This document shows positions 1 to 35,273 of a DNA stretch of 35,310 nucleotides, one piece after another. Origin of the DNA: a virus (Duplodnaviria; Caudoviricetes); the IMG/VR virus record IMGVR_UViG_3300048550_000320, positions 1-35,310 of that record. One strand, written 5' to 3'. Both the position numbers and the translations under genes were made by a program. The notes under the pieces are model-generated. The model made no database searches, was not told the DNA's origin, and saw only the letters and a program-made list of their open reading frames with translations. Numbering within the stretch: position 1 is the first letter of the stretch; every line of letters starts with the position of its first letter.

Positions 1-2
1 CA

Positions 3-701
3 AAAATAAGTTTACCAAATCCAGAAGAATATGGTTCTTCATCAGCGCCAAAAATAATCACAGTTAAGGTTGCTTCTAAAACGGCAGCTCATCCTTATTC
101 AGGTCAAGGATCTTCAAGCGCATATTACTTTGATGGATTAGAATCACCAGCAATTACATTTTCAGGTGCTGATTCATCTTACAAATATTACTATAGATTT
201 GATCAATCAGATTCTACAAACAGCGGTCACCCATTAAGATTTTATTTAGACGCTGCTAAAAATACAGCTTACACTACAGGTGTAACTACAAACGGAACTC
301 CAGGAAATGCTGGGGCATATACTCAAATAGCAGTTGATGCAAACACACCTAATATTGTTTACTACCAATGTTCAAGTCACTCATTAATGGGTAACTTTGC
401 AAACGTAATATCTAATTATATAAATGGTGATTTAACTGTAGGCTCATTATTTAAAATGCCTGACAATACAGCTGCTAAAATATTAGTTGCAGATGGTACA
501 AGTTATCAAGAATCAGCAGTATCAGGTGATGCAACAATCGCATCTGGCGGAGCATTAACACTAGCTAACTCTGGAGTATCAGCAGCTAGTTATACAAATT
601 CATCAATTACAGTAGATGCAAAAGGAAGAATAACATCAGCATCAAGCGGAACTGCAGGAGCAACAGCGGGTTTTGCCGTTGCAATGGCTATCGCCTTGTA
701 G
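3..701 (+). CDS. C-terminal part of a tail fibre/virion protein (5' truncated by window) with a cupredoxin-like motif
   Basis: Frame is open from nt 3 (KISLPNPEEYG...YRFDQSDSTNSGHPLRF...YYQCSSHSLMG) and continues into the track ORF 387..701. It has a fibre-type repeat (ITVDAKGRITSASSG) and ends in AGFAVAMAIAL. Confidence 0.75.
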   Translation, partial: KISLPNPEEYGSSSAPKIITVKVASKTAAHPYSGQGSSSAYYFDGLESPAITFSGADSSYKYYYRFDQSDSTNSGHPLRFYLDAAKNTAYTTGVTTNGTPGNAGAYTQIAVDANTPNIVYYQCSSHSLMGNFANVISNYINGDLTVGSLFKMPDNTAAKILVADGTSYQESAVSGDATIASGGALTLANSGVSAASYTNSSITVDAKGRITSASSGTAGATAGFAVAMAIAL

Positions 702-716
702 TATAAGGAATAAATT

Positions 717-1055
717 ATGGCACAAGATTTTAAAAGATTCGGAGACCAAGACGTAGGAACATCAGCAGTCACTATTCATACTAGTAATTCTAACGATGCT
801 ATAATTTCTATTCGTCTTGCAAACATAACAACATCAACAATAAATGCAGATGTATTTATAACATCTTCAGTAACAGGTGGTTCTCAAAACCACTACATAA
901 TCAAAAATGCGCCAATCGTTGCGGGTGGATCGCTCGAGCTTATAGATGGTGGAAGTAAATTAGTAATGCAAAGCGGAGATGTGGTAAAGGCACAATCAGA
1001 TACTGCAAGTTCATTGAGTGTTTGGATGTCTACAGTTGATGCAATAAGTTCATAG
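717..1055 (+). CDS. Small all-beta virion protein (putative fibre adaptor), paralogous to 12492..12836
   Basis: AAGGA RBS; beta-rich 112 aa; shares pattern with 12492 ORF (AIISIRLAN/AIIKSILVC; KLVMQSGDVV/PLIMQESETL; SLSVWMS/RLHIVAS). Confidence 0.6.
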   Translation: MAQDFKRFGDQDVGTSAVTIHTSNSNDAIISIRLANITTSTINADVFITSSVTGGSQNHYIIKNAPIVAGGSLELIDGGSKLVMQSGDVVKAQSDTASSLSVWMSTVDAISS

Positions 1056-1063
1056 GAGTAATC

Positions 1064-1507
1064 ATGGCGTACGTAGGAAATGCACCGAAACAAAATTTAA
1101 ACACCATGAACTCTCAACAGTTCAACGGTGATAATTCAGAAACAGATTTTACACTTTCACAGAGTGTAGCCAACACAGCAGAAGTAGAAGTCTATGTTGG
1201 AAACGTTAGACAAGATCCGTTTTCAGCTTACTCAATATCTGGTGGTACAACTTTAGCTTTTACAGCGGCCCCTCCAACAGGAACTGGAAATATCTATGTA
1301 GTGTTCCAAGGTAAATCAGTCGGTAATGTTGAACCAGGAGCAAACAGTATTCAAGCAGGAATGATTTCTGCAATCAATGGTGGTTATAAAAATTTAGCAA
1401 CAGTTTCAGAAACAATTACAGTTCCTGCAACGGACAACATGATGTTATGTGGTCCAGTATCTTTTACAGCAACAGTCACAGTAAACGGGACATTAACGGT
1501 AGTATAA
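1064..1507 (+). CDS. Tail fibre anchor/adaptor protein, cassette 1
   Basis: AGGAG RBS; FNGDNSETDFTL...VYVGNVRQDP..AYSISGGTTLAFTAAP phage fibre-base domain; beta-rich C-terminus GPVSFTATVTVNGTLTVV; paralog of 4781..5236. Confidence 0.65.
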   Translation: MAYVGNAPKQNLNTMNSQQFNGDNSETDFTLSQSVANTAEVEVYVGNVRQDPFSAYSISGGTTLAFTAAPPTGTGNIYVVFQGKSVGNVEPGANSIQAGMISAINGGYKNLATVSETITVPATDNMMLCGPVSFTATVTVNGTLTVV

Positions 1508-1508
1508 T

Positions 1509-2072
1509 ATGGCAACATTATTTGTAGATAAAATAGACCCACAATCAGGAACAAGTTTAACAATAGGTTCTTCAGGAGATACTGTTGCTTTAACTTCAGG
1601 TGTTGTGCAAAGTAATTTAATGAATCCAGCTTTTCATGCAACTTTATCTTCTAATCAAAGTTTAACAAATAACACTGGAACGATAGCTATTTTTAATGCA
1701 GAAACTTTTGATACAGATAATGCTTATGATACTTCTACAGGAAAATTTCAACCACAAGTATCAGGAAAATATTTTATTTATGCAAGTACTTATCTAGAAA
1801 TGGGTGCTAGTTCTAACTTAAATAGAGTTCTCGGTTACATACAAAAAAATGGGACTAACGTTCTTTTTAATTATAATGATGCAAGAGCAAATCCAACTAG
1901 AGCATTTTCATTAAATCCAAGTGGGGTTATTGAACTTAATGGTAGTTCAGATTATGTGCAATCATATGTTCAAGTAATTGCTCAAACAACAGCTAGTGGT
2001 TTATATATAGGTGGGGGTACAGGTGGAGATGCCTCATTTTCATACTTCGGTGCATACAGGATAGGAACATAA
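1509..2072 (+). CDS. Receptor-binding protein with C1q/TNF-like head (position A, cassette 1)
   Basis: gC1q signature PAFHA...FNAETFDTDNAYDTSTGKFQPQVSGKYFIYA...KNG...IELNGSSDYV...YFGAYRI. Confidence 0.75.
   Translation: MATLFVDKIDPQSGTSLTIGSSGDTVALTSGVVQSNLMNPAFHATLSSNQSLTNNTGTIAIFNAETFDTDNAYDTSTGKFQPQVSGKYFIYASTYLEMGASSNLNRVLGYIQKNGTNVLFNYNDARANPTRAFSLNPSGVIELNGSSDYVQSYVQVIAQTTASGLYIGGGTGGDASFSYFGAYRIGT
2046..2067 (+). repeat. 22-nt direct repeat TTCGGTGCATACAGGATAGGAA (2046-2067, 3141-3162; degenerate copy 2599-2620) at C1q gene 3' ends
   Basis: Direct sequence comparison. Confidence 0.9.
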
Positions 2073-2076
2073 TATT

Positions 2077-2625
2077 ATGGGAACAATTAAAACAACAAAT
2101 ATAGAACCAATCGCGGACAACGGCACAGTAACCCTGGGTAGTTCTGGGGATCAATTTACTTTGGCTACAGGTGCAAAGTCTAGTTTTCTATATCCAGCTT
2201 TTGAAGCATATCTTTCATCAAGCCAAACTGTTACTGATGATGTTAATACTAAAATTCAAATAAACACTGAAGTTTTTGATACAGACAACTGTTATGACAA
2301 TTCAACTAACTACAGGTTTACTCCAACAGTTGCTGGAAAATATTTTGTTTATGGCGGAGTAAGAGCAAGTAATACTGCAGCCTCTAAAATAAGGGACGTT
2401 ACTTTGCGTATTTATAAAAATGGAAGTTCTTATAGAATGTCTGATTGGAGATTTGCAGATAATGATATACAGAGAGCAGGCTTATCTGTTAATGCAATAA
2501 TAGATTTTAATGGTTCATCAGATTATGTCGAATTATTTTTAAATATAAATGATTTAGGCGGAACATCATCAGCAAATTCAGATGAAAAAGCGACATTTTT
2601 TGGTGCATACAGGTTAGGATCATAA
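2077..2625 (+). CDS. Receptor-binding protein with C1q/TNF-like head (position B, cassette 1)
   Basis: PAFEA...EVFDTDNCYDNSTNYRFTPTVAGKYFVY...YKNGS...FNGSSDYVEL...FFGAYRL. Confidence 0.75.
   Translation: MGTIKTTNIEPIADNGTVTLGSSGDQFTLATGAKSSFLYPAFEAYLSSSQTVTDDVNTKIQINTEVFDTDNCYDNSTNYRFTPTVAGKYFVYGGVRASNTAASKIRDVTLRIYKNGSSYRMSDWRFADNDIQRAGLSVNAIIDFNGSSDYVELFLNINDLGGTSSANSDEKATFFGAYRLGS
2191..2207 (+). repeat. 17-nt direct repeat TATCCAGCTTTTGAAGC (copies 2191-2207, 2727-2743; 11-nt core at 1624-1634) at plug/C1q-head junctions
   Basis: Direct sequence comparison. Confidence 0.9.
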
Positions 2626-2627
2626 TC

Positions 2628-3167
2628 ATGGCATCAATTATAAAAGCAAATCAACTACAGGACTTTGGCGGTAACAGCATTATCACATCTGATGGTGCGG
2701 GTAATCTTACTACGCAGAAGATTAACTATCCAGCTTTTGAAGCTACACTTTCTGCTAATCAAACTGTAAGTGATTCTGCTGATGTCAAAGTTCAATTTAA
2801 CACAGAAACTTTTGATACAGATAATTGTTATGATAATTCTACTAATTATAGATTTACTCCAACAACTGCTGGTAAATATTATGTTTATGCAAGATTACAA
2901 TGTGATTCAAATGCAGCCAATAATCTTCAACAAGGTTTTGCTAAAATATATAAGAATGGTAGTAGAGTTGCTCAAACACAAATGAATATGAATGGTAATT
3001 TTCCAGAAAACATTGGAGTTAATGTTTTTAATATAATCGATATGAATGGTTCTAGTGATTATTTAGAAATATATGTAAATATTGATGATACATCTGGAGA
3101 TGGTGCAGTTAGAGGAACTTCAAGTTTTGCTTGGACTTCTTTCGGTGCATACAGGATAGGAAGTTAA
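2628..3167 (+). CDS. Receptor-binding protein with C1q/TNF-like head (position C, cassette 1)
   Basis: PAFEA...FNTETFDTDNCYDNSTNYRFTPTTAGKYYVY...YKNGS...MNGSSDYLEI...SFGAYRI. Confidence 0.75.
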   Translation: MASIIKANQLQDFGGNSIITSDGAGNLTTQKINYPAFEATLSANQTVSDSADVKVQFNTETFDTDNCYDNSTNYRFTPTTAGKYYVYARLQCDSNAANNLQQGFAKIYKNGSRVAQTQMNMNGNFPENIGVNVFNIIDMNGSSDYLEIYVNIDDTSGDGAVRGTSSFAWTSFGAYRIGS

Positions 3168-3169
3168 TT

Positions 3170-4186
3170 ATGGCATTAAGTAAAATAGATTCAGCAAACA
3201 TGATCGAGGATGTGCCTCAATCGAAAATTGATAATAATATTAACTTCAGAAATCTGATAATTAATGGAGATCAATCTATTGCACAAAGAGGAACTTCACA
3301 AGCTAGTATTACTGCCGCTGGATATTATACTATTGATAGATGGAGAACTGATGTTGTTACTGCTGGTACTTGGACACAAACACAATCAACAGATGTTCCA
3401 ACTGCTCAAGGTTTTCAAAAATCAACTAAATTAGATTGTACTACTGCAGATGGTTCTTTAGCTGCTGGAGATAGAGTATTTTATGGTCAAAGAATAGAAG
3501 ATCAAAATTGTACTTATTTAAAAAAAGGAACTTCATCTGCTGAAAGCACAACAGTTTCATTCTGGGTTAAATCAAATAAAACAGGAACTTATATTTGTGA
3601 ACTTTTTGATAGCCACAATTCAAGGTCAATTTCAAAATCTTATACAATCAATTCAGCTAATACTTGGGAAAAGAAAACAATTACTTTTGCTGGAGATACA
3701 TCAGGTGCATTTGCTAATGATACTGGCATTGGTTTAATGTTGCAATTTTGGTTAGCTGCTGGAAGTACCTATACATCTGGTTCTTTACAAACTTCTTGGG
3801 ATGCAAACACATCTGCAAACAGAGCAGTAGGTCAAGTTAATCTTGCAGATAGCACATCAAACGAATGGTATGTTACAGGAGTTCAGCTTGAGGCAGGCTC
3901 GGTAGCCAGCGACTTTGAATTTTTACCTGTTGATGTGAATTTAGGAAGATGTCAGAGGTATTTTACTAAACTTCATGGAACTATTTATGGTGGTTATTAT
4001 ACTTCTACTACTTCATTTACTGGTGGTATTTTACCAGTTGAGATGAGAACTAATCCAACAGCATCATACGATGGCGTAAGAACAACAACTGGCTTAAATG
4101 CTTATCTTACAAAAACAAATGCTCAATATATTATGACACACTTACAAGGTTTTGTTACTGGGTTTACATTAAATGCGGAGTTATAA
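3170..4186 (+). CDS. Tail fibre/spike protein with carbohydrate-binding-like domain (position D, cassette 1)
   Basis: Start reassigned to ATG 3170 (MALSKID), just after the upstream stop. NFRNLIINGD..IAQRGT...DRW...SFWVKS...TGVQLEAG..ASDFE...RCQRY is a marine phage tail-fibre pattern; close paralog of 7616..8719. Confidence 0.7.
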   Translation: MALSKIDSANMIEDVPQSKIDNNINFRNLIINGDQSIAQRGTSQASITAAGYYTIDRWRTDVVTAGTWTQTQSTDVPTAQGFQKSTKLDCTTADGSLAAGDRVFYGQRIEDQNCTYLKKGTSSAESTTVSFWVKSNKTGTYICELFDSHNSRSISKSYTINSANTWEKKTITFAGDTSGAFANDTGIGLMLQFWLAAGSTYTSGSLQTSWDANTSANRAVGQVNLADSTSNEWYVTGVQLEAGSVASDFEFLPVDVNLGRCQRYFTKLHGTIYGGYYTSTTSFTGGILPVEMRTNPTASYDGVRTTTGLNAYLTKTNAQYIMTHLQGFVTGFTLNAEL

Positions 4187-4198
4187 TTATGATTAATA
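4173..4198 (+). repeat. 26-nt direct repeat ATGCGGAGTTATAATTATGATTAATA (4173-4198, 8706-8731) spanning D-gene stop and chaperone start
   Basis: Direct sequence comparison. Confidence 0.9.
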
Positions 4199-4389
4199 AA
4201 AAAAATATAAATTCAGTAACTTTAATGTATGACACAATATTAGAACCTGGAAAGAAACATTCATATAAAGTTATTTTTAATACAGACAAAATTTGTTTTG
4301 TACCACTAGACGAAGCAAACACAGATTACCAAGCAATACAGGAGTGGATTTCAGAAGGAAACACAGTTATTGATAACCCACCAGAATAA
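4189..4389 (+). CDS. Small tail fibre assembly chaperone-like protein
   Basis: Directly follows D gene; VPLDEANTDYQAIQEW motif; paralog of 8722..8901. Confidence 0.6.
   Translation: MINKKNINSVTLMYDTILEPGKKHSYKVIFNTDKICFVPLDEANTDYQAIQEWISEGNTVIDNPPE
4299..4337 (+). repeat. 39-nt identical repeat TGTACCACTAGACGAAGCAAACACAGATTACCAAGCAAT (4299-4337, 8811-8849)
   Basis: Direct sequence comparison. Confidence 0.95.
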
Positions 4390-4417
4390 TATATAAGTAT
4401 AACAAAGGAGAAAAACT

Positions 4418-4768
4418 ATGGCATCACTATCAAGCAAAATTAAACAGTACGCATCAGACAATGGTGTAGCTTCTGTTGACTTTATGGCTGACGTTTTGCT
4501 TCAGGACGACTCAAACGGTCAGGGACCCTACATCAAGGAATGGAATATCTCAAATGTAGCGAAACCTACTGATGAGCAACTGAACGCTGTAGATTCTGCT
4601 GCAGATCTCGAAGAGAGACAAAATGCAGTAAGAGCTACAAGAAGAAACGCATACGGTGATCTTGGTTCACAGTTAGACATGCAGTACCACGACAATGTTG
4701 ATGGTACAACTACATGGAAAGACCATGTGGCTGCTGTTAAGACTGCAAACCCGATCCCAACTGAATAA
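4418..4768 (+). CDS. XkdW-like tail fibre chaperone
   Basis: Strong AAGGAG RBS; LLQDDSNGQGPYIKEWN...KPTDEQL resembles XkdW; C-terminal RRNAY..LGSQLDMQYHD...WKDHVAAVK. Confidence 0.55.
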   Translation: MASLSSKIKQYASDNGVASVDFMADVLLQDDSNGQGPYIKEWNISNVAKPTDEQLNAVDSAADLEERQNAVRATRRNAYGDLGSQLDMQYHDNVDGTTTWKDHVAAVKTANPIPTE

Positions 4769-4780
4769 GGAGAAAACAAA

Positions 4781-5236
4781 TTGGCTTACGTTGGAAAAGC
4801 TCCTCAAACAGGAGCGTATCAAATACTGGATGACATCGCATCGTCATTCACCGGATCAACACCAGGACCGTTTAACTTAACGGTGAACGGCACAGCTGTG
4901 TCTCCTGGAAACGAAGCTAATTGTATAATATCTATTTCAGGTGTAGTGCAAGATCCAGCAGCCTTTACAATAACAGGTTCACAGATTTCTTTTAGTTCAA
5001 ACCCAGCATCATCAGATACTTTTTTCGGAACAGTATTAGGTGATGTGTTTGATATTGGAACTCCAACAGATTCAACAGTGACCGCAGGAAGTTTAGCATC
5101 AACATTTTTTATGAAAAACAGTCAAACGTTTACAAGTATATCAATGGCAGGTTCAAACAACGGAGCACTCGTTGGACCCGTTACAGTTAGTGGTACAGTG
5201 ACTATACCATCAGGGAGTACATTCGTAATTTTATAA
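4781..5236 (+). CDS. Tail fibre anchor/adaptor protein, cassette 2 (TTG start)
   Basis: AAGGAG RBS before TTG; MAYVGKAP matches MAYVGNAP of 1064; ISGVVQDPAAFTITGSQISFSSNP; C-terminus GPVTVSGTVTIPSGSTFVIL. Confidence 0.65.
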   Translation: MAYVGKAPQTGAYQILDDIASSFTGSTPGPFNLTVNGTAVSPGNEANCIISISGVVQDPAAFTITGSQISFSSNPASSDTFFGTVLGDVFDIGTPTDSTVTAGSLASTFFMKNSQTFTSISMAGSNNGALVGPVTVSGTVTIPSGSTFVIL

Positions 5237-5781
5237 TGAGTAAGTTAGAGACAAATACAATTGATACAATATCAGGAAGTAATACACTTACTTTAGGTTC
5301 AAGTAATTTATCTACTATTAATATGGCAAGTGGTGTTAGTCCTGGAACAGGGATGGGTAAAGTTTTACAAGTTGTTCAAGGTGTAAAAACTGCAGCTGTT
5401 ACTACAAGTTCAACTTCTTTTTCTGCAACAGGAGTTAAAGCAACAATAACTCCATCATCAACAAGTTCTAAAATTTTAGTTTTAGTCACTCTAAATGGAG
5501 TAGCTGGAAGTGGTAGCACTACTAGAAATGCAAGTTTTAAACTATATAAAGGTGGTTCATTTTTAGATTGGATAGTAGATGGTTATGGATATGGAACTGG
5601 TATTCTTATAGGAAATGTATCTTATAATAAACTTGTTTCTCCATCAACTACATCTGCAACAGAATTTGAGGTATTTTTTGCTGAACAAGGTGGCTCTGGT
5701 AGTCCAATCTACATTAATAATTATCCTGCTTCAGATAACACATCAACCTCAACAATCACACTAATGGAGATATCAGCATAA
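5236..5781 (+). CDS. Receptor-binding protein, probable jelly-roll head (position A, cassette 2)
   Basis: TAATG coupling; N-terminus like 1509; head GKVLQVVQ...ITPSSTSSKILV...STITLMEI. Confidence 0.6.
   Translation: MSKLETNTIDTISGSNTLTLGSSNLSTINMASGVSPGTGMGKVLQVVQGVKTAAVTTSSTSFSATGVKATITPSSTSSKILVLVTLNGVAGSGSTTRNASFKLYKGGSFLDWIVDGYGYGTGILIGNVSYNKLVSPSTTSATEFEVFFAEQGGSGSPIYINNYPASDNTSTSTITLMEISA
5342..5360 (+). repeat. 19-nt direct repeat CTGGAACAGGGATGGGTAA (5342-5360, 6874-6892) encoding the GTGMG linker at plug/head junctions
   Basis: Direct sequence comparison. Confidence 0.9.
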
Positions 5782-6038
5782 TGATTATAGAAACAATTTT
5801 AAAAATAAATCCTAGTGCAGAAGTAACTGTTACAGGTAAAGATATAAATACTTGTGAAATAACTTGGTTAAATAGCACAACACCTATTTCTAAAGCAGAT
5901 ATTGAAGCAATGATGCCTATTGTTGAACAAGAAATTAAAGACGCAGAAACTAAAAAAATTAACGACAAAGCAACTGCTAAATCTAAATTAAAAGCATTAG
6001 GATTAACTGATGCTGAAGTGGAAGCATTACAAGGATAA
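5781..6038 (+). CDS. Chaperone-like partner of 5236 gene
   Basis: TAATG coupling; MIIETILKINP...W..TTPISK...KLKALGLTDAE; paralog of 7356..7616. Confidence 0.55.
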   Translation: MIIETILKINPSAEVTVTGKDINTCEITWLNSTTPISKADIEAMMPIVEQEIKDAETKKINDKATAKSKLKALGLTDAEVEALQG

Positions 6039-6040
6039 TT

Positions 6041-6622
6041 ATGGCAGACGGAACTTTAAAAGTAGGGACAATAACAACGAGCTCTGGATCAGGGACAATT
6101 ACTATTGGTCAATCTGGGGAGACTTTAAATGTAGGTACAGGAGTAGTCTCAAGACTTGGAAAATTTGAATCACAACTACTTCATGTAAGAGATGAAAAAG
6201 CAAGTGGTACTGAAGGTGGTGCTACTTCATCAGGAGACAATACATGTGTTTTAAACACAATTAAAACAAACGAAATTACTGGTGCTAGTTTATCTTCTAA
6301 TCAAATTACTTTACCTTCAGGAACTTATTATATAGATGCATCTGTACCTGGATTTTTTGTAGATAGATTAAGAGGTTTTTTAAGAAATATTACAGACAGT
6401 TCCGATACTATTCTTGGTCAAGCAGGTTATGCAGTAGCAACATCACCTGCTTCTCAAAATGTTTCAAAAGTATGTGGTAGATTTACAATAGCTTCACAAA
6501 AGGTATTTGAGATAAAACTTTATTGCCAAACTGCAAGAGTTACTAATGGTTTCGGTGTTAATACAGGTGATAGTAGAACAAATGTTTATACTGATGTTCA
6601 AATATGGAGAACAGGTGAATGA
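6041..6622 (+). CDS. Receptor-binding protein, probable TNF/C1q-like head (position B, cassette 2)
   Basis: N-terminus like 2077; head HVRDEKASGTEGG...QITLPSGTYYIDAS...VYTDVQIWR. Confidence 0.6.
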   Translation: MADGTLKVGTITTSSGSGTITIGQSGETLNVGTGVVSRLGKFESQLLHVRDEKASGTEGGATSSGDNTCVLNTIKTNEITGASLSSNQITLPSGTYYIDASVPGFFVDRLRGFLRNITDSSDTILGQAGYAVATSPASQNVSKVCGRFTIASQKVFEIKLYCQTARVTNGFGVNTGDSRTNVYTDVQIWRTGE

Positions 6623-6789
6623 AATACGCATTAATAGAAAACAATGTAGTCAAAGTAATATCTTACGAACCAACAGAAGGTTTTGTTGAAGTATCAGACA
6701 ATGTATTTGCTGACATGGTTAAAAAAGAAGATGGAACATTTGATTACACAGATGAATTTAAAGCCGAACACACAGGAGATATTGAGTAA
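6619..6789 (+). CDS. 56-aa tail-fibre-assembly-like protein (not in ORF track)
   Basis: ATGA overlap with upstream stop, TAATG overlap downstream; MKYALIENNVVKVISYEPTEGFVEVSDNVFADMVKKEDGTFDYTDEFKAEHTGDIE. Confidence 0.65.
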   Translation: MKYALIENNVVKVISYEPTEGFVEVSDNVFADMVKKEDGTFDYTDEFKAEHTGDIE

Positions 6790-7352
6790 TGAGTAGCATT
6801 TTAAAAGTAGACCAGCTTAAAGATTCAGGAGGCAATGCAATTATTACTTCTGATGGAAGTGGTAACATTACTACTGGAACAGGGATGGGTAACTATGTTG
6901 TAGAAAAAATTTCTTCTTATATTAATCCAACAAATGTTTCAACGACATCTCAATTAGATTATTTTGATATAGCAGGTGACAATACTATTAATTTTACACC
7001 AACCTCTACAAATGACATCATAATATTATCAGGTGCTAGTGTTATAAGAAATGGTACAACAGAAGCTAATGGTATTGGTTTAGGAATAATGCAAGGTACA
7101 TCTTCATCATTAAGTTCAAGTGATACTGTTGTAATGGCAAATGGAAGATTTGGTAATATGTTTGGCTCATTTTATACTAAAGGAACTATCCAAGCTGATG
7201 TAACTGGTTTAAGTGCAAATACTACTTATTATTTTGAAATGTATGGAATGACTTATACAACAAATTTACATTATTTTAATTATGGTACTACTAATGCTAC
7301 TGACAACGGAAGACATAAATTAATCGGAGTACATTATAAATACACAGGATAA
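6789..7352 (+). CDS. Receptor-binding protein, probable jelly-roll head (position C, cassette 2)
   Basis: N-terminus closely matches 2628 (QLKDSGGNAIITSDGSGNITT vs QLQDFGGNSIITSDGAGNLTT); head with INFTPTSTNDIIIL. Confidence 0.6.
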   Translation: MSSILKVDQLKDSGGNAIITSDGSGNITTGTGMGNYVVEKISSYINPTNVSTTSQLDYFDIAGDNTINFTPTSTNDIIILSGASVIRNGTTEANGIGLGIMQGTSSSLSSSDTVVMANGRFGNMFGSFYTKGTIQADVTGLSANTTYYFEMYGMTYTTNLHYFNYGTTNATDNGRHKLIGVHYKYTG

Positions 7353-7355
7353 CAA

Positions 7356-7616
7356 ATGATTATAGAAACAATATTAAAAATAAATCCAAATGCAAAAGTT
7401 ACTGTTATAGGTGATGACATTGATAACTGCGAAATTGAATGGTTAGAAAATACAACACCAATATCAAAAGAAGATATTGAAGCTATGATACCAGTTGTTG
7501 AACAAGAATTAAAAGACGCTGAACAAACAGCAATAGATAAAAAAGCCTCTGGTAAACAGAAGCTAAAAGATTTAGGATTGGACGACGCAGAAATTAAAGC
7601 GTTGATAGGAGCATAA
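7356..7616 (+). CDS. Chaperone-like partner of 6789 gene
   Basis: Paralog of 5781..6038; first 32 nt are 31/32 identical. Confidence 0.55.
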   Translation: MIIETILKINPNAKVTVIGDDIDNCEIEWLENTTPISKEDIEAMIPVVEQELKDAEQTAIDKKASGKQKLKDLGLDDAEIKALIGA

Positions 7617-8719
7617 TGGCGATAACTAGAATAGGTAACCCAGCAATCGCAGATCAAAGAGGCGTTAATTTTAGGAATATAATAATTAATGGCGGAATGG
7701 ATTTAGCACAAAGAGGAACTTCCTTTACAGGGATTACAAGTGGAAGTAATTATTGTTTAGATAGATTTACAACTGTGCCTGTAACTGCTGGAACTTGGAC
7801 ACAAACACAATCAACTGATGTACCAACTGGTCAAGGCTTTGCAAATTCTGCAAAATTAGATTGCACTACTGCAAATGGTTCTTTAAGTGCTAATAGTTTG
7901 TTGTACTTTCAACAAAGAGTAGAAGGTCAAAATTTACAGTATTTAAAAAAAGGCACATCAAGTGCTGAAAGTGTTACAATGTCATTTTGGGTTAAATCAA
8001 ACAAGACAGGAACTTATATTGTAGAGTTATTTGATGGAGATAATACAAGACAAATATCAAAATCATATACTATCAATTCTGCTAATACTTGGGAAAAGAA
8101 AACTATTACTTATTCAGGTGATACAACAGGAGCATTTAATAATGATAATGCTTTAAGTTTATATTGTTTTTTTTGGTTAGCAGGTGGAACTGATTATACT
8201 TCAGGAACTTTATCAACAACTTGGACAGCAAACACAAATGCAAATAGAGCAGTAGGTCAAGTCAACCTTGCAGATAACACAGCTAACGAATGGTACATTA
8301 CAGGCGTACAATTAGAAGCTAAAGAAGTAGCATCTGATTTTGAGTTCTTGCCACATGATATGAATTTAGAAAGATGTTTAAGATATTACTATCTTGTTGC
8401 TGAAGGAGATCAACAAAGTATGGGAACGGGTCTTTACTATAGCAGTGCTTATCTTTTACAAGCAGCTTCCTATCCCGTTAGAATGAGAGCAACACCATCT
8501 TTACACCAAACGTCAGGTTCAGCATATTATGGACTTTTTAGAAGTGCTGCTGAAGATACTTTTAACGAATTTATTATAAATGTATCAGGTTCATTAAGGT
8601 CAAATGATAAATATTATGAAATATACAATGCCAGTAATGCTAGTGGAACTGCTGGACAAACAGGTTTTTTAAGAACTAGCAATGCAAGTGCTTTTATAGC
8701 ATTTGATGCGGAGTTATAA
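7616..8719 (+). CDS. Tail fibre/spike protein with carbohydrate-binding-like domain (position D, cassette 2)
   Basis: Highly similar to 3170..4186 up to RCLRY, then a divergent and longer tip; both end in AEL. Confidence 0.7.
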   Translation: MAITRIGNPAIADQRGVNFRNIIINGGMDLAQRGTSFTGITSGSNYCLDRFTTVPVTAGTWTQTQSTDVPTGQGFANSAKLDCTTANGSLSANSLLYFQQRVEGQNLQYLKKGTSSAESVTMSFWVKSNKTGTYIVELFDGDNTRQISKSYTINSANTWEKKTITYSGDTTGAFNNDNALSLYCFFWLAGGTDYTSGTLSTTWTANTNANRAVGQVNLADNTANEWYITGVQLEAKEVASDFEFLPHDMNLERCLRYYYLVAEGDQQSMGTGLYYSSAYLLQAASYPVRMRATPSLHQTSGSAYYGLFRSAAEDTFNEFIINVSGSLRSNDKYYEIYNASNASGTAGQTGFLRTSNASAFIAFDAEL

Positions 8720-8721
8720 TT

Positions 8722-8901
8722 ATGATTAATACAGTAACAAAAAACTATAATTTTGAAAACGAATTTTGCAGTTATCAAGTAACTTATGTAAATTCTAATA
8801 AAGTTAAATCTGTACCACTAGACGAAGCAAACACAGATTACCAAGCAATCCAAGAATGGGCCAAGATAGAAGGCAATAACATCACTGACAACGGAGCGTA
8901 G
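8722..8901 (+). CDS. 59-aa tail fibre chaperone-like protein (not in ORF track)
   Basis: MINTVTKNYNFENEFCSYQVTYVNSNKVKSVPLDEANTDYQAIQEWAKIEGNNITDNGA; paralog of 4189..4389. Confidence 0.7.
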   Translation: MINTVTKNYNFENEFCSYQVTYVNSNKVKSVPLDEANTDYQAIQEWAKIEGNNITDNGA

Positions 8902-22261: not shown

Positions 22262-22639
22262 ATGAAAAATAGTTTGTTAGTGCATCAGCACTTAATTATT
22301 CGTGCTGAAGCTATCAAACCACCAGTCGATGAAGAACAATTAACAGAGTGGATGAGAGACTTTGTTGAGTTTATAAATATGAAAATATTTATGGGTCCTT
22401 ATGTTAAGTATTGTTCAATGCCTGGTAACAGAGGTATTACTGCTGTTGCAATTATTGAGACTTCACACATAGCTATGCACGTTTGGGATGAGCCATCACC
22501 TGCATTGATGCAGTTTGATGTCTATTCGTGTGCCAACTTTGATGTAGAAAAGATTTGTGAAAAAATTAAAAAAGATTTTAATATACAAAAGATTGAATAT
22601 AAATTCTTGAATCGCGAAACGGGATTACAAGATATTTAA
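22262..22639 (+). CDS. speD: Pyruvoyl-dependent decarboxylase proenzyme, AdoMetDC/SpeD family (possibly Arg/Orn decarboxylase)
   Basis: HQHLII...GITAVAIIETSHIAMHVWDE...QFDVYSC matches the class 1 SpeD fold motifs. Confidence 0.8.
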   Translation: MKNSLLVHQHLIIRAEAIKPPVDEEQLTEWMRDFVEFINMKIFMGPYVKYCSMPGNRGITAVAIIETSHIAMHVWDEPSPALMQFDVYSCANFDVEKICEKIKKDFNIQKIEYKFLNRETGLQDI

Positions 22640-25301: not shown

Positions 25302-26072
25302 ATGGCTAATGAAATAAAAGCTAAACAAGACACATCACTTGCTTTATTTGGCGATGATGTATCCAAAGGTTTTGAAAACATGACGCAAGAAGATATGGCG
25401 TTACCGTTTGTCAGAATCTTGGGACAACTATCACCACAAGTAACAGAAGGCGATGCAAAGTATATAGATGGTGCCAAACCAGGCATGGTCTACAATACTG
25501 TTACCAGCGAGTTATATGATGGTAAAAAAGGTATCAAGGTTATTCCTTGCTATTACAAAAAAGATTATCCAGAATGGTCGGATAGAGGGGATGGACCAGG
25601 TGCTCCGGTTGCAGTTCACCTTCCGAACAGTCCGGTAATCTCAACAGGTAAGAGAGATGGCTCAAAGATTAGATTACCAAATGGTAATTATTTAGAAGAG
25701 ACAGCATCTTACTATGTAATGATTGAGACAAAAACTGGAGGTTTTACTCCGGCTTTGATTACTATGAAATCAACTCAATTAAATGTCAGTAAAAAATGGA
25801 ATTCTATGATGAAAACCATACAAATTGCTGATGGTAATGGTGGATTTGCTATCCCACCTATGCACGGAGTTGTGTATAATCTAGCGTCTGTACTACAAAA
25901 GAACGATAAAGGTTCATGGTATGGATGGTCGGTTACACAAGACAGAATTTTAGGTCAACCAGACAAAGCTTTGTACTTAAGTGCAAAAGATTTTGCCGGT
26001 AATGTATCTAAAGGGACCGTTCAAACAAAAGCTGATGTAGAAGAGAAAGTACAGGATTCAACTCCTTACTAA
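25302..26072 (+). CDS. Putative single-stranded DNA-binding protein
   Basis: GGAG RBS; position upstream of primase; aromatic-rich beta core (NDKGSWYGW); acidic tail ending in an aromatic residue (EEKVQDSTPY). Confidence 0.5.
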   Translation: MANEIKAKQDTSLALFGDDVSKGFENMTQEDMALPFVRILGQLSPQVTEGDAKYIDGAKPGMVYNTVTSELYDGKKGIKVIPCYYKKDYPEWSDRGDGPGAPVAVHLPNSPVISTGKRDGSKIRLPNGNYLEETASYYVMIETKTGGFTPALITMKSTQLNVSKKWNSMMKTIQIADGNGGFAIPPMHGVVYNLASVLQKNDKGSWYGWSVTQDRILGQPDKALYLSAKDFAGNVSKGTVQTKADVEEKVQDSTPY

Positions 26073-34628: not shown

Positions 34629-34836
34629 AGTTATATGTGACCATTGTAAAGGCAATGGTTACTTAAGAGAGAGTAATGGTTCTTATACCGAAGTACATCA
34701 ATGTCCTACTTGTAATTCACAAGGCGAAGTAATGGCTGAAATATATGAACAATTACTTAATACTATTCCCGAAGGAGCAACCGGGAAAGAAATTGCTGAA
34801 ATATTAGAAGGCGATAAGAAAGTCACGCTTCAATGA
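34609..34836 (+). CDS. DnaJ-type Zn-finger protein
   Basis: CDHCKGNG...CPTCNSQG (CxxCxGxG-like pair). Confidence 0.65.
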   Translation: MAKQKIKVICDHCKGNGYLRESNGSYTEVHQCPTCNSQGEVMAEIYEQLLNTIPEGATGKEIAEILEGDKKVTLQ

Positions 34837-35273
34837 ATGATGTAGATATTGCCTATATAGCAGGGCTTTTTGATGGTGAGGGAAGTATTAATATAAGACG
34901 TGCATTTGAGAAGAAAAAAAAGCATAAAAATAAACCAGGATATCGAATGTCTAATTCAATGAGAATATCTATGGAGATTACTATGACTGATCGTAGTGTT
35001 TTAATTTGGTTACATGAAGTTTTAGGAGTCGGGACCTTACGACCTAAAAAAGTAAAAGGTAAAAGAACAGATGGCACTCCTTATCTTAAACAATATAAAT
35101 GGAGATGTGTATTTAGAGATGCGTTTAAAGTTTGTTGTCTATTGTTTCCTTATGCTCACACAAAGCTTGGAAAAATTACACAAGTAATTGAACACTACAC
35201 TAGTATTCCTGAAAATGTTGTAAGAGATAATGTAGTAAATTTTGAACATTACAAGATGTGGATTAAACAATGA
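34833..35273 (+). CDS. Single-motif LAGLIDADG homing endonuclease-like protein
   Basis: IAYIAGLFDGEGSI, ITMTD..VL.WL, G.G, YKW, LFPY...K pattern. Confidence 0.8.
   Translation: MNDVDIAYIAGLFDGEGSINIRRAFEKKKKHKNKPGYRMSNSMRISMEITMTDRSVLIWLHEVLGVGTLRPKKVKGKRTDGTPYLKQYKWRCVFRDAFKVCCLLFPYAHTKLGKITQVIEHYTSIPENVVRDNVVNFEHYKMWIKQ

Follow-up and report, generated by a model that had tools for sequence, protein, structure and literature searches.

A virus record of 35,310 nucleotides (nt), IMGVR_UViG_3300048550_000320 (the window, that is, the whole stretch of DNA analysed), carries at positions 1509-8901 an ordered array of eight genes of 179-367 amino acids (aa), each built as plug, linker and head, and some followed by small genes. 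"Plug" is the word of an earlier, sequence-only reading of this DNA for the short, differing N-terminus, and S1 to S8 are our own labels for the slots. The heads appear truly to shuffle, with seams at short motifs that form the first or last codons of heads (YPAF.., FGAYRIG and GTGMG). The best explanation, and one that we consider probable, is that fixed, slot-specific plugs carry interchangeable heads and that the short motifs are the seams of homology-guided recombination.

All of these motifs lie on the + strand, where the sequence-only reading had placed them. The 5′ motif TATCCAGCTTTTGAAGC occurs in S2 (2191..2207), where locus L100 is identical through the motif and diverged beyond it, and in S3 (2727..2743); its core ATCCAGCTTTT (N-P-A-F) occurs in S1 (1624..1634). 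The 3′ motif TTCGGTGCATACAGGATAGGAA (F-G-A-Y-R-I-G) is found in S1 (2046..2067), overlapping the likely ribosome-binding site of S2, and at the end of S3 (3141..3162), and a degenerate copy lies at 2599..2617, with GGTGCATACAGG at 2602, from which loci L090 and L115 match the window at 96% as far as 2738. The 19-nt motif CTGGAACAGGGATGGGTAA (x-G-T-G-M-G-K) lies in S5 (5342..5360) and S7 (6874..6892). Given the same residues and the codon usage of the window, the chance of identical codons is 0.059 for YPAFE, 0.009 for FGAYRIG and 0.026 for GTGMG, and because of these values the window alone is suggestive at most.

Fixed plugs and unlinked heads

Relatives were collected as 625 array genes at 187 loci (417 unique), copies of the window's own genotype having been dropped. 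Plugs follow the canonical order in 344 of 354 adjacencies, a set that includes later loci; six adjacencies skip slots and four are of another arrangement. There are 274 C1q-like genes, of which 252 could be anchored and 217 are less than 65% identical to one another. Where two genes share a plug but carry unrelated heads (1,653 pairs), identity at four-fold sites amounts to 0.84 for the plugs and 0.47 for the heads, as against 0.46 across slots. Head pairs below 60% aa identity have a same-slot share of 0.15-0.16, equal to that of the least related pairs, and 11 of the 38 head pairs at ≥68% are cross-slot. Because of this contrast between plugs and heads, and because heads below 60% carry no slot signal, heads and plugs can be said, on sequence grounds, to have separate histories. 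The array genes share a conserved N-terminal anchor joined to an exchangeable C-terminal domain, and the same plugs occur in cultured HTVC115P, a phage of another pelagiphage group, where S5, S6 and S7 plugs stand in order with PAF-type heads (L461:5046-6634).

Several side observations concern the same genes. In loci L091 and L134 these head types stand in another array order, in which S5-like plugs come first, S1-like plugs next and MSTLKV after them; at L460 and L462, cultured pelagiphages from other groups share plugs or head types with the array. The start and end styles of C1q heads are coupled: a YPAF start is accompanied by a RIG end in 74 of 78 cases, and a TPAF start by a KII or KLIG end in 104 of 129. 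End style is also more uniform within a locus than after shuffling (90 of 212 pairs, compared with 56). The two styles may represent classes of compatibility or separate lineages.

Seams at the two ends of heads

Eight cross-slot gene pairs share 85-98.6% of their DNA over 429-725 nt. Identity begins at the PAF codons in six of the seven C1q pairs among them; in the seventh, the S1 head of the window recurs in slot 2 of L087 (96% nt identity), with a seam near a GSSGDT shared at the plug end. The S4 head of the window matches an S8 head in L292 at 87.7% over 725 nt. Anchored identity profiles over 242 pairs stand at 0.85-0.97 before the PAF codons and drop there to the baseline seen across slots. 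Three slot-skipping fusions (L336/L355, L338/L378 and L355/L376) combine a different plug with the same head and identical downstream DNA, the pattern expected from a single slot-skipping crossover at PAF. The GSSGD motif (~1566-1585 and ~2134-2152) marks a second class of seam, at the border of plug and linker, and the same linkers stand behind different plugs in S1/S2 and, in L367/L378, in S5/S6.

A larger set of 411 unique heads yielded 84 pairs at ≥85% nt identity, 37 of which, in 22 clusters, have different N-termini; 5′ seams were placed by a change-point fit, the first pair of each cluster being taken. Relative to the head-start motif, the seams of C1q clusters lie at -68, -23, -17, -6, -6, -3, -3, -3, -3, -1, 0, 0 and +3 nt (10 of 13 within -6..+3), and those of GKV-type clusters at -14, -5, -1, -1, 0, 0, 0, 0 and +7 nt. 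Seams fall within -12..+15 nt of the motif in 18 of the 22 clusters, compared with 10.7 expected under a null uniform over the linker (P ~7e-4).

At the other end of heads, anchored profiles over 350 pairs climb from baseline at the terminal Y. The last residue after RIG depends on the slot that comes next: it is A before S6 (18/18) and S7 (15/15), S before S3 (12/15) and S4 (8/9), and T before S2 (12/19). In L098/L288, L256/L314, L298/window and L306/L314, heads remain near-identical as far as the RIG codons, beyond which each has the last codon typical of its slot; several swapped pairs thus differ, according to slot, in the codon that ends the gene after AGGATAGGA, and in L089/L090 a shared head diverges directly after AGGATAGGA. 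Among the contig joints listed, one in run X7 (2061-to-2615) falls inside the 3′ motif and two in run X5 run from 2164 to 1595 and from 7705 to 3281; a loose end listed in X1 after 6892 reads into a GKIL-type head, and those listed at 2191, 2193 and 2729 may be motif-only matches. These joints come from assembled contigs, from which frequencies are not derivable. Conserved DNA is thus found on both sides of the head, with seams located in it, and the earlier expectation that breakpoints in relatives would be enriched at the motifs is borne out by the 18 clusters, by the last codon following the downstream plug, and by the X7 joint.

The relatives are metagenome contigs, and assembly or amplification chimeras arise at short homologies, so cross-slot combinations could be products of the method. 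We regard this as very unlikely, since the S1 head of the window is found in slot 2 in both L087 and L088 as well as in the joints of X5 and X7, swapped heads show 1-15% point differences with slot-specific last codons, and the PAF-type heads on S5-S6-S7 plugs of HTVC115P come from a cultured phage. The arrangement of the window itself is not a single odd assembly, since L081 matches it at 100% over 8,977 nt and the junctions of slots 1-4 are crossed, with 0-1 differences, by contigs from runs X2 and X4; X1 also covers the array or parts of it with hardly any differences.

Motif codons were compared with controls of the same residue and the same next-residue context in head bodies. In the 3′ motif, TAC is used in 112/159 cases against 45/307 in controls, AGG in 79/101 against 2/110, GCA in 102/109 against 102/322, and TTC in 35/109 against 6/84; in the 5′ motif, the figures are 97/136 against 114/476 for AAC, 89/116 against 73/166 for ACT, and 149/169 against 67/117 for GCT. 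TAC is the majority codon in six of the seven slot groups with ≥9 heads, and equally conserved internal columns (the D of FDTD, the G of GKY and the D of DY) are mostly at background, with a few skewed. The outcome favours the sequence-only reading, which would have been refuted had residue conservation and codon bias alone predicted the identity of the motifs. That no exchange occurs, and that paralogues evolve in place with their motifs kept alike by residue conservation and codon bias, might still be argued from the weak window-only chances (0.059 and 0.026), from the equally long repeats inside heads and from a chaperone match that lies near consensus; yet heads 85-100% identical sit on unrelated plugs, and the synonymous contrast of plugs and heads and the context-matched codon tests point the same way, so that, provided the cross-slot contigs are genuine, this account already conflicts with the data, and we give it hardly any credence.

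The 19-nt motif has a narrower role. It had been described as a junction joining two plugs to two divergent heads. In relatives, L356 (S5) and L360/L368 (S7) share a 92% identical head from the first base of the motif, and the chaperone travels along; the motif marks only this one of nine GKV-type swaps. The other eight seams start at the GK codons, with ~5 shared bases, and for this reason the 19-mer is best read, from the sequences compared, as the mark of a single exchange between S5 and S7 which then spread. Exact copies number 44 in the metagenome matches (5 on S5 plugs, 20 on S7 plugs and 19 unrelated), and the 24 full-length heads that bear it, the window's two included, form 13 clusters. 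As that scan selected for the motif, it is uninformative on the frequency of GGG; outside it, the codon at this place is GGA in 5, GGG in 4 and GGT in 4. When viral contigs were scanned with a degenerate GTGMGKV pattern, 49 matches came up, most of them unrelated; among the loci first collected, these supplied L166, L177, L191 and L193 besides copies of the window. The S7 head of the window has a 52% relative in L380 on an unrelated N-terminus, with only GG.AA shared at the seam.

The starts of the chaperone-like genes behind S5 and S7 do match in 31 of 32 nt (5781 and 7356), but their proposed part in crossover was rejected: 65 of 1,831 comparable pairs (3.5%; 92 unique chaperones) reach the same value, the chaperones having been selected with a pattern that already prescribes many of the compared bases, and the identity of L356/L360 runs through this point. 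The match is thus for the most part a population-wide consensus start.

Possible routes of exchange

Plugs are 88-96% identical between genomes over ~80-140 nt, and same-slot swaps consequently need no micro-homology; the plugs on both sides of a head (80-140 nt) would serve as ordinary homology arms. The earlier proposal that whole heads are swapped at short homology is in this respect too broad, and would apply across slots. Cross-slot moves would have no more to draw on than the 10-20 nt that heads have in common in their opening codons (N-[TY]-P-A-F or G-K-V) and in their closing ones (G-A-Y-R-I-G). A crossover that skips slots would probably first fuse plug i to head j, after which the product would probably recombine with an intact array at the 3′ motif and so regain all its slots. 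Repeated exchange of this kind would keep the motif DNA alike across unrelated plugs, rare codons included.

The enzyme involved would be a general one, either host RecA or a phage protein resembling single-stranded DNA-binding proteins (SSBs) together with an exonuclease, rather than a site-specific recombinase or a reverse transcriptase. An exonuclease is encoded in the relative 023Pt_psg01. Searches for reverse transcriptase (PF00078) and for serine (PF00239) and tyrosine (PF00589) recombinases found none in five relatives, one of them 100% complete and complete MW574966 among them, with controls that worked; this agrees with the original suggestion of a route that needs neither reverse transcriptase nor invertase. 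The array does not show the inverted sites with heads on both strands of an invertase switch: its motifs repeat in direct orientation, and its genes all lie on the + strand. As to the template/variable repeat pair of a retroelement, the repeat list of the window holds only paralogue pairs (72-83% identity).

The gene at 25302..26072 (+ strand) encodes a Pam3 gp34-like protein (Pfam PF23977) with a predicted OB-fold of single-strand DNA-binding type. Its structural model has a predicted local distance difference test score (pLDDT) of 91, the single-sequence fold reaching a pLDDT of 31. The best match of the model is 9teh_I, a chain of a phiC31 integrase-recombination directionality factor (RDF) fusion (Z 8.5, root-mean-square deviation 4.0, 156 aligned); the comparison with T4 gp32 gives Z 5.3, and Foldseek returned no match at E≤0.001. 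On the strength of the model the protein is a candidate annealing factor, and its SSB-like fold may give the Pam3 gp34-like family a function. A dedicated but unrecognised recombinase or nuclease that reads the motifs as sites would account for the sharpness of the C1q seams (10 of 13 clusters), and could draw on the integrase-RDF match. Nevertheless, that match is middling and sits among SSBs, serine and tyrosine recombinases are absent from the five relatives, and the motifs vary among themselves and accept substitutions (CCA/CCT; RIG, KII and KLIG endings; GKV), and we consider such an enzyme highly improbable.

A number of observations weigh against motif-guided exchange. Exact runs as long as the motifs, 23 nt at 1699/2803, 3368/7793 and 3656/8081, lie in head bodies and were absent from the earlier note. 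In four of the 22 clusters the seam is found upstream, at -14 to -68, the S1 head of the window being the case at -68, and 14 pairs share only part of a head, so that, as far as alignments tell, exchange also occurs inside heads and at the plug/linker border. The uniform-over-linker null is crude and our own, and the filter left out seams deeper in the head; the seams of relatives rest on single assembled contigs rather than reads; and heads on a common scaffold are not independent, which was handled by dereplication and per-slot counts. Many seams have <10 shared nt, fewer than the minima of 23-34 bp given for pairing in PMC3945230, and cross-slot events may for that reason be rare and enriched by selection. 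Among codons, CCA at the 5′ motif is not in excess over controls (135/169 against 30/38), pooled cross-slot synonymous identity is raised only modestly (0.733 against 0.649 at 5′, 0.697 against 0.620 at 3′), and an internal KNG block is raised as much (0.670 against 0.591). Plugs use AAC (0.51) and GAC (0.42) more than heads do (0.15 and 0.14). AGG/GGA, 10-15 nt before the next ATG, can be read as a ribosome-binding sequence, which the 3′ motif likely overlaps, and 3′ seams could be pinned by selection alone because only whole heads with an intact next start are viable.

Much of this bears on whether the motif is a cause of exchange (a hotspot) or its scar (a surviving seam). In the latter case, rare homology-independent joins would occur, only those at domain borders would survive, and the motif DNA would be inherited with the plugs and the next ribosome-binding site. 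Seams do coincide with domain starts, eight of nine GKV-type seams lie at GK codons with their ~5 shared bases, the S7 head of the window is joined at GG.AA, and AAC and GAC are frequent in plugs too. On the other hand, linkers offer a median of ~15 codons of room and the seams still cluster at the motif, AAC, ACT, GCT, GCA and TAC are common to unrelated plugs and are not ribosome-site bases, and slot-skipping fusions break at PAF. Of the two readings we favour the hotspot, which we hold to be probable, and attach a decidedly smaller weight to the scar.

The array, its genome and known systems

The eight heads comprise three of C1q/TNF-like type, three of PHROG tail-fibre type and two without a named family. 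The array follows an upstream tail-fibre-like adaptor gene (1064..1507, + strand, as for all genes below; MAYVGNAP..; PHROG 18673 tail fiber, E 2e-11). The first three heads had been called C1q heads, and the Pfam C1q (PF00386) cut-off of 23.7 bits is passed by one of them: S1 (1509..2072; plug MATLFVDK) scores 31.3 bits, S2 (2077..2625; plug MGTIKTTN, C1q/TNF-like head) has a weak TNF match only, and S3 (2628..3167; plug MASIIKAN, C1q-like head) stays under the cut-off at 16.9 bits and found no match in a PDB sequence search. S4 (3170..4186; plug MALSK) has a PHROG 4492 tail-fibre-type head and is followed by a small, putatively chaperone-like gene (4189..4389), an XkdW-family gene (4418..4768; Pfam PF09636) and a second adaptor gene (4781..5236; MAYVGKAP..-like; PHROG 18673, E 1e-52). 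S5 (5236..5781; plug MSKLETN) carries a GKVLQV-type head, for which Pfam, PHROG and Atlas searches gave no named family, and a chaperone-like gene (5781..6038; PHROG 9114); S6 (6041..6622; plug MADGTLK) has a PHROG 24210 tail-fibre-type head. S7 (6789..7352; plug MSSILKVD) carries a GNYVVEK head with no named family in Pfam or PHROG and its own chaperone-like gene (7356..7616; PHROG 9114), and S8 (7616..8719; plug MAITRIG) has a PHROG 4492 head followed by a small gene (8722..8901) paralogous to that at 4189-4389. A 26-nt exact repeat at 4173..4198 and 8706-8731 spans head end and chaperone start and was absent from the earlier note; another of 39 nt (4299-4337 and 8811-8849) lies inside the small genes downstream of S4 and S8. 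Both exceed the motifs of the sequence-only reading in length and are likely seams for the S4/S8 head type. Based on the C1q and PHROG tail-fibre matches and on PMC3909814, the heads likely recognise host surfaces.

The completeness of the window is put at 58% by CheckV. Its polymerase A is 91% identical to that of 023Pt_psg01, 56% to that of HTVC027P and 53% to that of HTVC023P, and with a polymerase A closest to phages of the HTVC023P type the window is a pelagiphage fragment resembling that type. Positions 1-8000 matched 28 phage records, 16 of them Pelagibacter phages, and its relatives point to SAR11 as the likely host. In 023Pt_psg01 and HTVC023P nothing matches window positions 1-8000, and the genes there are annotated differently. 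Two members of the same polymerase group (L334:27702-31909, MW574966; L463:6242-11938, HTVC023P) hold three to four tandem genes of 440-490 aa and 2OG-Fe(II) oxygenases in the region of the array. Because other tandem genes stand in the array's region in both, the comparison suggests that the island type as a whole can be replaced. Elsewhere in the window, an S-adenosylmethionine decarboxylase gene (22262-22639; PF02675) adjoins an M15 peptidase, and the open reading frame at 34833-35273 resembles what we take, from its YIAGLFDGEG motif, to be a LAGLIDADG-type homing endonuclease.

Diversity-generating retroelements and invertase tail-fibre switches diversify host-binding tips. Unlike these, the array involves replacement of whole-domain heads, all on one strand, with reverse transcriptase and resolvase families in none of the five relatives. 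Exchange at conserved motifs has closer precedents. Coliphage tailspikes have conserved DNA motifs before and after an exchangeable receptor-binding domain, with a fixed N-terminal anchor, and these are proposed recombination hotspots, although those motifs measure 44, 95 and 20 nt with 63-81% identity, one of them is non-coding, and no correlation with recombination events was observed by the authors (PMC10408124); those of the array are 10-22 nt long, coding and repeated over eight slots of one genome, and seams map to them. In the T-even phages, exchange of gp37/gp38 adhesins within or near conserved motifs was shown experimentally, and an N-terminal attachment part is likewise joined to a variable specificity part; as described in the accessible text, it concerns one locus with glycine-rich motifs within one adhesin, and not an array of plugs that trade heads (PMC3157838).

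Allele pools of genes for putative receptor-binding proteins with C1q domains are known as well. Pelagiphage metaviromic islands hold C1q genes in which read recruitment is better at the N-terminus than over the head (PMC3909814), and cryoconite phages have flexible C1q variants (PMC7468147); the main text of the former does not use the word "recombination", and the accessible part of the latter treats same-locus variants, with neither seams nor cross-slot moves. Hypervariable regions are mentioned, in the accessible text without seams, in PMC10504331 and PMC12379486. The relaxed homologous recombination of phage recombinases, which tolerates divergence, likewise yields homology-driven mosaicism, but no Rad52-like recombinase was identified in the window and many seams are under the quoted 23-27 bp minimum (PMC3945230). 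The literature searched, which did not extend to most subscription papers or to supplements, yielded no description of the eight slots or of their seams. Head swapping at conserved motifs is already known, and its multi-slot form is apparently undescribed in that literature.

A bolder version of our reading, which we put forward only tentatively, is that the motifs are standard connectors, kept alike by exchange or by selection for it, through which an ocean-wide library of hundreds of heads could fit any of the eight slots, across pelagiphage groups, by phage SSB-driven annealing needing only 5-20 shared bases: a recombinase-free host-range cassette system. HTVC023P-type phages are reported to be the most abundant known marine phage group (10.1101/2019.12.14.876532). 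Host-recognition islands, known mainly as coverage gaps, here gain a parts list and seams at base resolution, with 217 C1q-like heads less than 65% identical drawn into fixed slots. The old question of whether conserved DNA at module borders is a cause of exchange or only what outlasts it becomes testable by recoding 10-20 bases, and the seams predict where long reads break and how head exchange could map the receptors of SAR11.

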